Shown here: one piece after another, positions 1 to 244 of the stretch
Numbering within the stretch: the stretch's first letter is position 1
Layout: the number at the start of each line of letters is the position of its first letter
Assembly: GCF_003334385.1 (NCBI RefSeq)
Contig: NZ_QOWN01000223.1
DNA length: 244 nucleotides
Source: Escherichia coli
GTDB lineage: Bacteria; Pseudomonadota; Gammaproteobacteria; Enterobacterales; Enterobacteriaceae
Reading direction: 5' to 3' (one strand)
The notes under the pieces: generated by a model
What the model was told of the DNA's origin: nothing
The model's database searches: none
Seen by the model: only the letters and a program-made list of their open reading frames with translations
Program-made: the position numbers and the translations under genes

Positions 1-134
1 CCGTATGCTTCGGTATCGCTGGCTGTTGCAGTGAAAGGAACCGCCTGCTCAATGTGCTCAAACTTCACCATGCAATTGACAGCAGTGTGATCTTTATCTG
101 CCCATTGCGGATTGCTTATTTTTTCCACATTCAT
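1..134 (-). CDS. Hypothetical protein, N-terminal fragment (5' end present, 3' end beyond window start). The 44 codons seen translate to MNVEKISNPQWADKDHTAVNCMVKFEHIEQAVPFTATASDTEAY. No family recognised.
   Basis: Reverse complement of 1-134 reads ATG AAT GTG GAA AAA ATA AGC AAT CCG CAA TGG ... GAA GCA TAC with no stop through the window edge. The ATG at 132-134 lies 6 nt downstream of an AGGAG Shine-Dalgarno. Amino-acid composition is balanced and protein-like, and codon choice is mostly common enterobacterial-type codons. The codon-aligned + strand frame is Cys/His-rich and looks like an antisense shadow. Confidence 0.7.
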   Translation of the reverse strand, partial: MNVEKISNPQWADKDHTAVNCMVKFEHIEQAVPFTATASDTEAY

Positions 135-140
135 GTTCAT

Positions 141-145
141 CTCCT
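141..145 (-). promoter_or_regulatory. Shine-Dalgarno / ribosome-binding site (AGGAG) for the downstream minus-strand CDS
   Basis: The + strand CTCCT at 141-145 is AGGAG on the minus strand. It sits 6 nt upstream of the ATG at 132-134 and directly abuts the ATG at 138-140. Confidence 0.6.
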
Positions 146-150
146 GTCTG

Positions 151-244
151 TCAGTATGCGCGCTGGAACAGCCCGATGCCTTCATTGTCATTTGTCGACG
201 TAATTTCATTACACACCATCCATGAGCCCGGAACTGAGGATAGT
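151..244 (-). CDS. Hypothetical protein, C-terminal fragment (5' end beyond window end). The 30 codons seen translate to LSSVPGSWMVCNEITSTNDNEGIGLFQRAY, then stop TGA at 151-153.
   Basis: This minus-strand frame is open from the right window edge to the TGA at 151-153 (+ strand TCA). Codon choice (CCG, GGC, CTG, CAG, CGC, ATC, GAA) looks more gene-like than the other two minus frames over the same stretch. The stop lies 16 nt upstream of the SD-preceded ATG of the next gene, a typical operon junction. The frame assignment is not unique (see findings). Confidence 0.45.
   Translation of the reverse strand, partial: LSSVPGSWMVCNEITSTNDNEGIGLFQRAY

Follow-up and report, generated by a model that had tools for sequence, protein, structure and literature searches.

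The 244-nt stretch of E. coli DNA analysed here (the window) is the reverse strand of a prophage junction between the end of a tail-fibre gene and the start of a DUF4376 gene. Its reverse complement is 100% identical over all 244 nt in E. coli strains G1/2, G6/7, and G8, and the G1/2 copy (NZ_CP060083.1, L001:12001-12244) lies at the end of the baseplate/fibre operon of a P2-like prophage adjoining serS. The sense strand is the minus strand of the window, on which the pentamer TTCAT reads ATGAA. The RefSeq CDS for a "phage tail-collar fiber domain-containing protein" ends at L001:12094 (window position 151), its TGA stop occupying positions 153..151 and its frame ending in ...CNEITSTNDNEGIGLFQRAY*; the corresponding CDS end in phage PhiR5_2 is annotated "tail fiber protein". 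The gap from this stop to the DUF4376 start in L001 is 16 nt, on the same strand, and RefSeq places that start at L001:12111 (window position 134), from where the sense strand reads ATG AAT GTG GAA AAA ATA... (MNVEKISNPQW...). The product is named "DUF4376 domain-containing protein" in G1/2 (RefSeq) and "tail fiber assembly protein" in phage PhiR5_2; the PF14301 domain is precomputed on the 96%-identical protein P0001 and on nearly all of the homologues listed, and 554 proteins match at E <= 1e-10. The coordinates of all features are collected in Table 1.

Table 1. Features of the fibre/DUF4376 junction. Positions are those of the 244-nt window unless a locus is named; a slash within a sequence marks a codon boundary. 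SD, Shine-Dalgarno sequence.
Feature	Position	Strand	Basis or reading
DUF4376 (PF14301) gene, 5' part (44 complete codons plus 2 bases)	1..134	-	annotation
+1-frame ATG (130..128), then A6 run (124..119)	119..130	-	side feature
TTCAT copy 1: start ATG (134..132) plus AA of the second codon, AAT (Asn)	130..134	-	
16-nt intergenic spacer, CAGACAGGAGATGAAC	135..150	-	sequence and CDS coordinates
TTCAT copy 2: ATGAA in the SD-to-start spacer	136..140	-	ATG 140..138 in frame, abuts the SD
3' end of prophage tail-fibre gene, last 30 codons, ...LSSVPGSWMVCNEITSTNDNEGIGLFQRAY	151..244	-	translation and annotation
TTCAT copy 3: ATGAA across AAT/GAA (Asn-Glu)	181..185	-	fibre offset 1564, phase 1, AATGAAGGC = NEG
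GTCAT near-copy: ATGAC across AAT/GAC (Asn-Asp)	187..191	-	read in the fibre frame
TTCAT copy 4: ATGAA across AAT/GAA (Asn-Glu)	205..209	-	fibre offset 1540, phase 1, AATGAAATT = NEI
ATGAATGAA start regions	L019:923-941; L022:1297-1315		
YadA C-terminal-domain gene	L017:3998-5113; L018:3875-5035; L026:4406-5521		

DUF4376 proteins encoded directly after fibre genes have been named tail-fibre chaperones in Alteromonas phages V22 and A5, and gp27 of V22, a DUF4376 protein, was identified by its authors as a new type of chaperone (PMC7289586, PMC10579305). The E. coli DUF4376 gene is presumed to be a tail-fibre chaperone gene, and it is called the chaperone gene below. The junction matches the fibre and chaperone pairs H-G of P2, S-U of Mu, and stf-tfa of lambda in gene order, strand, and short gap, but the classical Tfa family is PF02413, whereas the downstream protein in the window, a putative chaperone, is PF14301. 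In that respect it resembles gp26-gp27 of Alteromonas phage V22, a fibre/chaperone pair of the DUF4376 type. Mosaicism of fibre tip and chaperone across unrelated prophages is also common to the known pairs and to the window locus. The same succession of fibre gene and DUF4376 gene on one strand is found in 10 further loci (L002, L017, L026, and L019-L025), and the locus is a member of the known fibre-tip and chaperone modules that move between unrelated prophages.

Of 5,426 complete genomes, 29 have the window, and the full-length matches are all at least 98.4% identical; other carriers are eight sequenced temperate E. coli phages (PhiR5/PhiR12 series), and the sequence also lies at the ends of the P-EibC/D/E records. 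The prophages that carry the junction are P2-like, lambdoid (where it lies downstream of gpJ), or of the Eib type. Several copies can be found in one genome, in different prophages, with a median of three places per genome that has any: G1/2 itself has at least two junctions of different haplotypes (L001:12001-12244 and L026:3001-3070), and one isolate (IMG genome 643348545) has four (L008, L010, L011, and L012). In the non-P2 prophages, a gene with a YadA C-terminal domain lies ~0.7-0.8 kb downstream of the DUF4376 gene and, judging by the P-Eib records, it belongs to the Eib family of immunoglobulin-binding adhesins. A mosaic breakpoint is seen near window position 40, phages of the PhiR12_1 type matching positions 40-244 only. 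The GC content of the window is 47.5%, against 54.7% in the surrounding P2-like prophage (L001:1-20255), which fits a horizontally swapped fibre-tip/chaperone module.

Two further observations concern the fibre. As read by eye, fibres that are otherwise very divergent, each paired with a DUF4376 gene, have a similar ending, G-(L/I/V)-F-Q-R-x-x-stop, corresponding to window positions 154-171 on the minus strand and lying directly before the fibre stop in L019 and L021-L025; the L019 version is LCQRIA. This shared C-terminal tail may be the tip that is recognised by the chaperone. A collagen-like Gly-X-Y repeat (GPAGQQGPAGPTGPQGNTGPRG...) lies N-terminal to the fibre tip, at residues ~385-445 of the protein encoded by L001:10496-12094, and the L023 fibre also matches the Pfam Collagen family.

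The initial annotation had drawn attention to a local cluster of TTCAT pentamers in this junction. All four copies, and the GTCAT near-copy, are exactly where it placed them (Table 1); the four are on the plus strand, and TTCAT is absent from the minus strand of the window. The copies are 6, 45, and 24 nt apart, which fits neither the helical repeat nor any other regular register. The accompanying expectation of ~0.2 copies presupposes equal base frequencies and is too low for the composition of the window: mononucleotide and dinucleotide shuffles give 0.40 and 0.84 copies on the plus strand, and 1.18 copies are expected from shuffles if both strands are counted. AT-richness had been offered as a possible cause. 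The GC content does fall to 45.7% in positions 130-210, but AT-richness can account for only a small share of the cluster, since it raises the expectation from 0.23 to 0.4-0.8 and not to 4. The copies in the fibre gene had also been ascribed to Met codons of the upstream frame. This is incorrect: each is an xAT/GAA pair, Asn followed by Glu, in the tail-fibre frame, and the sole Met codon in that stretch of the fibre (ATG at 219..217) reads ATGGT rather than ATGAA. The start region ATG-AAC-ATG-AAT does explain part of the cluster, as had been suggested, but only the copy at 134..130 contains the likely start codon.

The two copies outside the fibre gene are in the start region of the chaperone gene. 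The Shine-Dalgarno sequence GGAG occupies positions 144..141, leaving 6 nt to the annotated ATG and none to the upstream one. We infer that the ATG at 134..132 is the start in use from its 6-nt distance to GGAG and from the dispensability of the upstream ATG (see below). An ordinary enterobacterial initiation region consists of GGAG, a spacer of 5-9 nt, and an ATG with an A-rich second codon, and the window has the same arrangement with 6 nt and AAT; its sole oddity by comparison is the near-duplicate hexamer ATGAAC ATGAAT, which places a second ATG in the spacer. The fibre gene ends at TGA and, 16 nt on, the chaperone gene would be translated from its own Shine-Dalgarno sequence (GGAG-N6-ATG), probably coupled to the fibre gene; re-initiation after the fibre stop is plausible. 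The four pentamers have three independent, ordinary sources. Two ATGAA words follow from Asn-Glu dipeptides of the fibre tip that are encoded AAT-GAA, one from the chaperone start codon and its A-rich second codon (ATG-AAT), a common start context in enterobacteria, and one from the spacer, rich in A, T, and G, that separates GGAG from the start codon.

Whether four copies are remarkable depends on the question asked. For ATGAA/TTCAT alone, on one strand, the probability of four or more is 0.0066 in dinucleotide-preserving shuffles of the window, and 8 of 200 shuffles reach four TTCAT if both strands are counted; in the 24-kb neighbourhood, four ATGAA inside 81 nt occur solely at the junction in the window. 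The pentamer was of course picked after looking at the sequence, and the null must allow for that choice. When it does, a count of at least four for the commonest pentamer, whichever it is, is seen in 25% of the shuffles of the window that preserve dinucleotides and in 15% of the mononucleotide shuffles. The surrounding prophage behaves likewise: of its 99 non-overlapping 244-nt segments, 44 have some pentamer at least four times. The single-pentamer significance is thus gone because the motif was chosen after inspection: shuffled and neighbouring sequence yields equally repeated words readily, and over-representation as a sign of a repeated cis-regulatory motif disappears.

A codon-aware null, in which both proteins and the 16-nt spacer were held fixed and synonymous codons were redrawn from prophage usage (AAT 35%, GAA 65%), gives an expectation of 2.46 ATGAA and a probability of 0.055 for four or more; with the spacer randomised as well, the probability is 0.002. 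The word is not a rare one. On the sense strand of the prophage region ATGAA occurs 1.9 times per kb, ranking 131 of 1024 pentamers, and 7 of the 44 annotated CDSs (16%) in the two annotated loci open with it. Inside the annotated CDSs of the locus it falls into phase 0 in 18 cases and into phase 1 in the remaining 22, where it encodes Asp, Asn, His, or Tyr followed by Glu; phase 2, which would make a TGA stop, does not occur.

Conservation of the copies was followed at two distances. Among 17 near-identical loci (98% identity or more), drawn from E. coli genomes, phages, and IMG/VR contigs, substitutions are rare, and the conservation of three of the copies there is uninformative. The near-copy GTCAT is altered in one of these loci (L007) by a synonymous change of GAC to GAT. 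Within the 244 nt, indels recur only in the start region, where the spacer contains ATGAAC in 7 of the 17 loci and ATGAC in the other 10. The copy at 136-140 is abolished by this 1-nt deletion, and its ATG is no longer in frame (ATG ACA TGA), with the gene itself intact. Matches of 100% identity to the ATGAC haplotype are present in 21 complete E. coli genomes; one of them is in a second prophage of G1/2. Looking further afield, a "distant" blastn search of E. coli genomes for the junction returned nothing below 95% identity, and a tblastn search of the phage collection with the fibre tip returned only close relatives (89-94%), which were of no use for a conservation test.

Seven divergent junctions were reached instead through protein homologues; their chaperones are 57-72% identical to that of the window, with the same N-terminal architecture, and their DNA is 52-80% identical. 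The equivalent 244-nt windows were read, the fibre C-termini by eye from the sequence, and contain 3, 4, 1, 2, 0, 1, and 0 copies of ATGAA. The two fibre-gene copies (181-185 and 205-209) are absent from six of the seven; L020 alone keeps them, a junction with 90% identity to the window in the fibre end and 72% in the chaperone part; at 90% identity, the estimated chance of keeping all 20 motif bases is ~0.12 (0.9^20). The third copy in L020 has Asp in place of Asn (GAT/GAA), with the pentamer kept. At the start codon, L019 and L022 read ATGAATGAA, whose first ATG lies 4 nt ahead of the real start and in another frame; the doubled ATGAA of the window is echoed there. Four other divergent junctions start with ATGGAG, ATGATT, ATGATC, or GTGAAA. 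Overall, two ATGAA words stand at or next to the start in three of eight distinct junction types (ATGAACATGAAT in the window and ATGAATGAA in L019 and L022), and a weak preference for ATGAA near the start is conceivable. Conservation of the motif positions, the second comparison proposed at the outset, is not found, with the copy at 136-140 lost from 10 of 17 loci and those in the fibre gene gone from six of seven divergent junctions; as judged from these alignments, there is no position-specific conservation beyond shared ancestry and the start codon.

These data bear first on the idea that the words are repeated sites for a DNA- or RNA-binding regulator, either of late expression or of tail-fibre switching. 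Several copies of a short word within ~80 nt do recall iterons, DnaA boxes, and arrays of transcription-factor half-sites, and the nominal enrichment of the single motif speaks for it. Unlike the words in such arrays, however, those in the window are 5 nt long, irregularly spaced, without dyad symmetry, and mostly coding; they are not conserved, and their number is not significant after correction for motif choice. Three of the four are fixed by coding or start-codon needs, one is lost in most relatives, and the copies in the fibre gene are absent from divergent junctions. The location is equally unsuited to a cis-acting motif: the site is in the middle of a late operon, a scan of the window found no sigma-70-like promoter, two copies are within the fibre CDS, and one is a start codon. 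A repeat search found no repeat family or dyad involving the pentamers; its sole hits, a direct repeat of 9 nt in two copies and a distant inverted repeat of 11 nt, do not include them. We regard a regulator-binding function as exceedingly improbable. The copies arise from coding and start-codon needs and, therefore, are not a regulatory motif.

A few other signals were sought in the window. A terminator-like hairpin on the plus strand (96-112), antisense within the chaperone gene, is weak, with six pairs, and was judged to be due to chance. The same judgement was made of a match to the Rfam family Mu-gpT-DE at 132-156 on the minus strand, which scored 16.6 bits against a gathering threshold of 49 (E = 0.17); in a permissive search, no Rfam family exceeded its threshold in the window.

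It might also be proposed that the words form a recombination joint at which fibre-tip/chaperone modules are exchanged between prophages. The presence of the same junction in P2-like, lambdoid, and Eib-type prophages and the low GC content of the window relative to its host prophage would both be in keeping with such exchange. The breaks in similarity, however, are elsewhere: near window position 40 in phages of the PhiR12_1 type and, in L020, both within the chaperone gene, below about window position 80, and some 300-400 nt upstream of the fibre stop, beyond which similarity is lost. Positions 130-210 are the most conserved core of the module and not its edge, and there is hardly any likelihood that the pentamers themselves are the joint.

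The two start-proximal copies (ATGAAC-ATGAAT) deserve separate treatment, as they could be a functional part of the translation initiation region, either as tandem in-frame starts that give MNMN... and MN... isoforms or as an A-rich, unstructured aid to re-initiation. Both ATGs are in frame in the window, and ATGAATGAA is also found at the start of L019 and L022. A-rich codons after the ATG are a feature of well-translated E. coli genes. The folded sense-strand RNA is, moreover, less stable at the junction than its shuffles (z = +1.0), with no structure that would sequester the Shine-Dalgarno sequence. Against such a role, the ATG at 140..138 is directly against GGAG, with no spacing at all; the ATGAC form, in which that ATG is out of frame and the gene is nonetheless intact, is the version in 10 of 17 loci and in the 21 complete genomes; the upstream ATG of L019 and L022 is likewise out of frame; and ATGAA is missing from the start of four of the seven divergent junctions. 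A role in initiation would in any case cover just two of the four copies, and it strikes us as very unlikely.

The start region has one further peculiarity. Downstream of GTGG, the run of A residues is A6 in some loci and A7 in others; this polymorphism and that of the spacer (window positions 119-140, minus strand) were noted in L009-L013, L016, and L026. With A6, the ORF opens at the ATG at 134..132 (MNVEKISNP...); a seventh A closes that frame after 13 codons, and the gene starts instead at the +1-frame ATG at 130..128 (MWKKISNPQW...), a type of start that PGAP annotates in L026. The ORF is intact, at ~192-200 amino acids, with either run length. All four combinations of spacer (ATGAAC or ATGAC) and run length (A6 or A7) are found, and the protein clusters comprise 857 and 144 members for the MNVEK form and 236 for the MWKK form. 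The source of the run is a conserved series of Glu-Lys-Ile codons (GAA AAA ATx) that most divergent homologues also have. A phase-variable on/off homopolymer tract was considered and rejected, because both tract lengths leave the ORF intact. In two database proteins (P0005 and P0008), the N-terminus comes from other frames of the junction: one, MKLRRQMIMKASGCSSAHTD..., is a close match to frame -1 at the end of the fibre gene, and the other, MNVEKNKQSATGRKDH..., matches the A7 frameshift before returning to frame. These N-termini are probably indels or assembly errors in single contigs.

Three ATGs in two frames are thus found within 13 nt, just upstream of the A6/A7 run, and the start region could in principle have been selected to tolerate indels. 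A one-base slip in the run, whether in replication or transcription, would still give a full-length protein that differs only in its first three or four residues (MNVEK... or MWKK...). If this were selected, it would be a small case of frameshift buffering at a translation start, to which two of the four pentamer copies would belong. We consider such selected buffering very unlikely. The A6/A7 polymorphism has the look of a homopolymer indel that is tolerated because an alternative start happens to rescue it, and it makes a tidy natural example of that kind of rescue.

In our view, the pentamer cluster is almost certainly a coincidence with no function of its own, in an ordinary late-operon junction, and is not a real feature; the caution of the initial annotation, which thought the cluster was probably nothing and proposed no binding protein, was well placed. 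The cluster matters little, as it takes little for a short word singled out by eye to occur four times in 244 nt, and xAT/GAA codon pairs, the ATG-AAx start context, and the Shine-Dalgarno spacer account for it fully. What the analysis yields as a by-product is the firm identification of a mobile fibre-tip/DUF4376 chaperone junction that is common to P2-like, lambdoid, and Eib-type prophages of E. coli.
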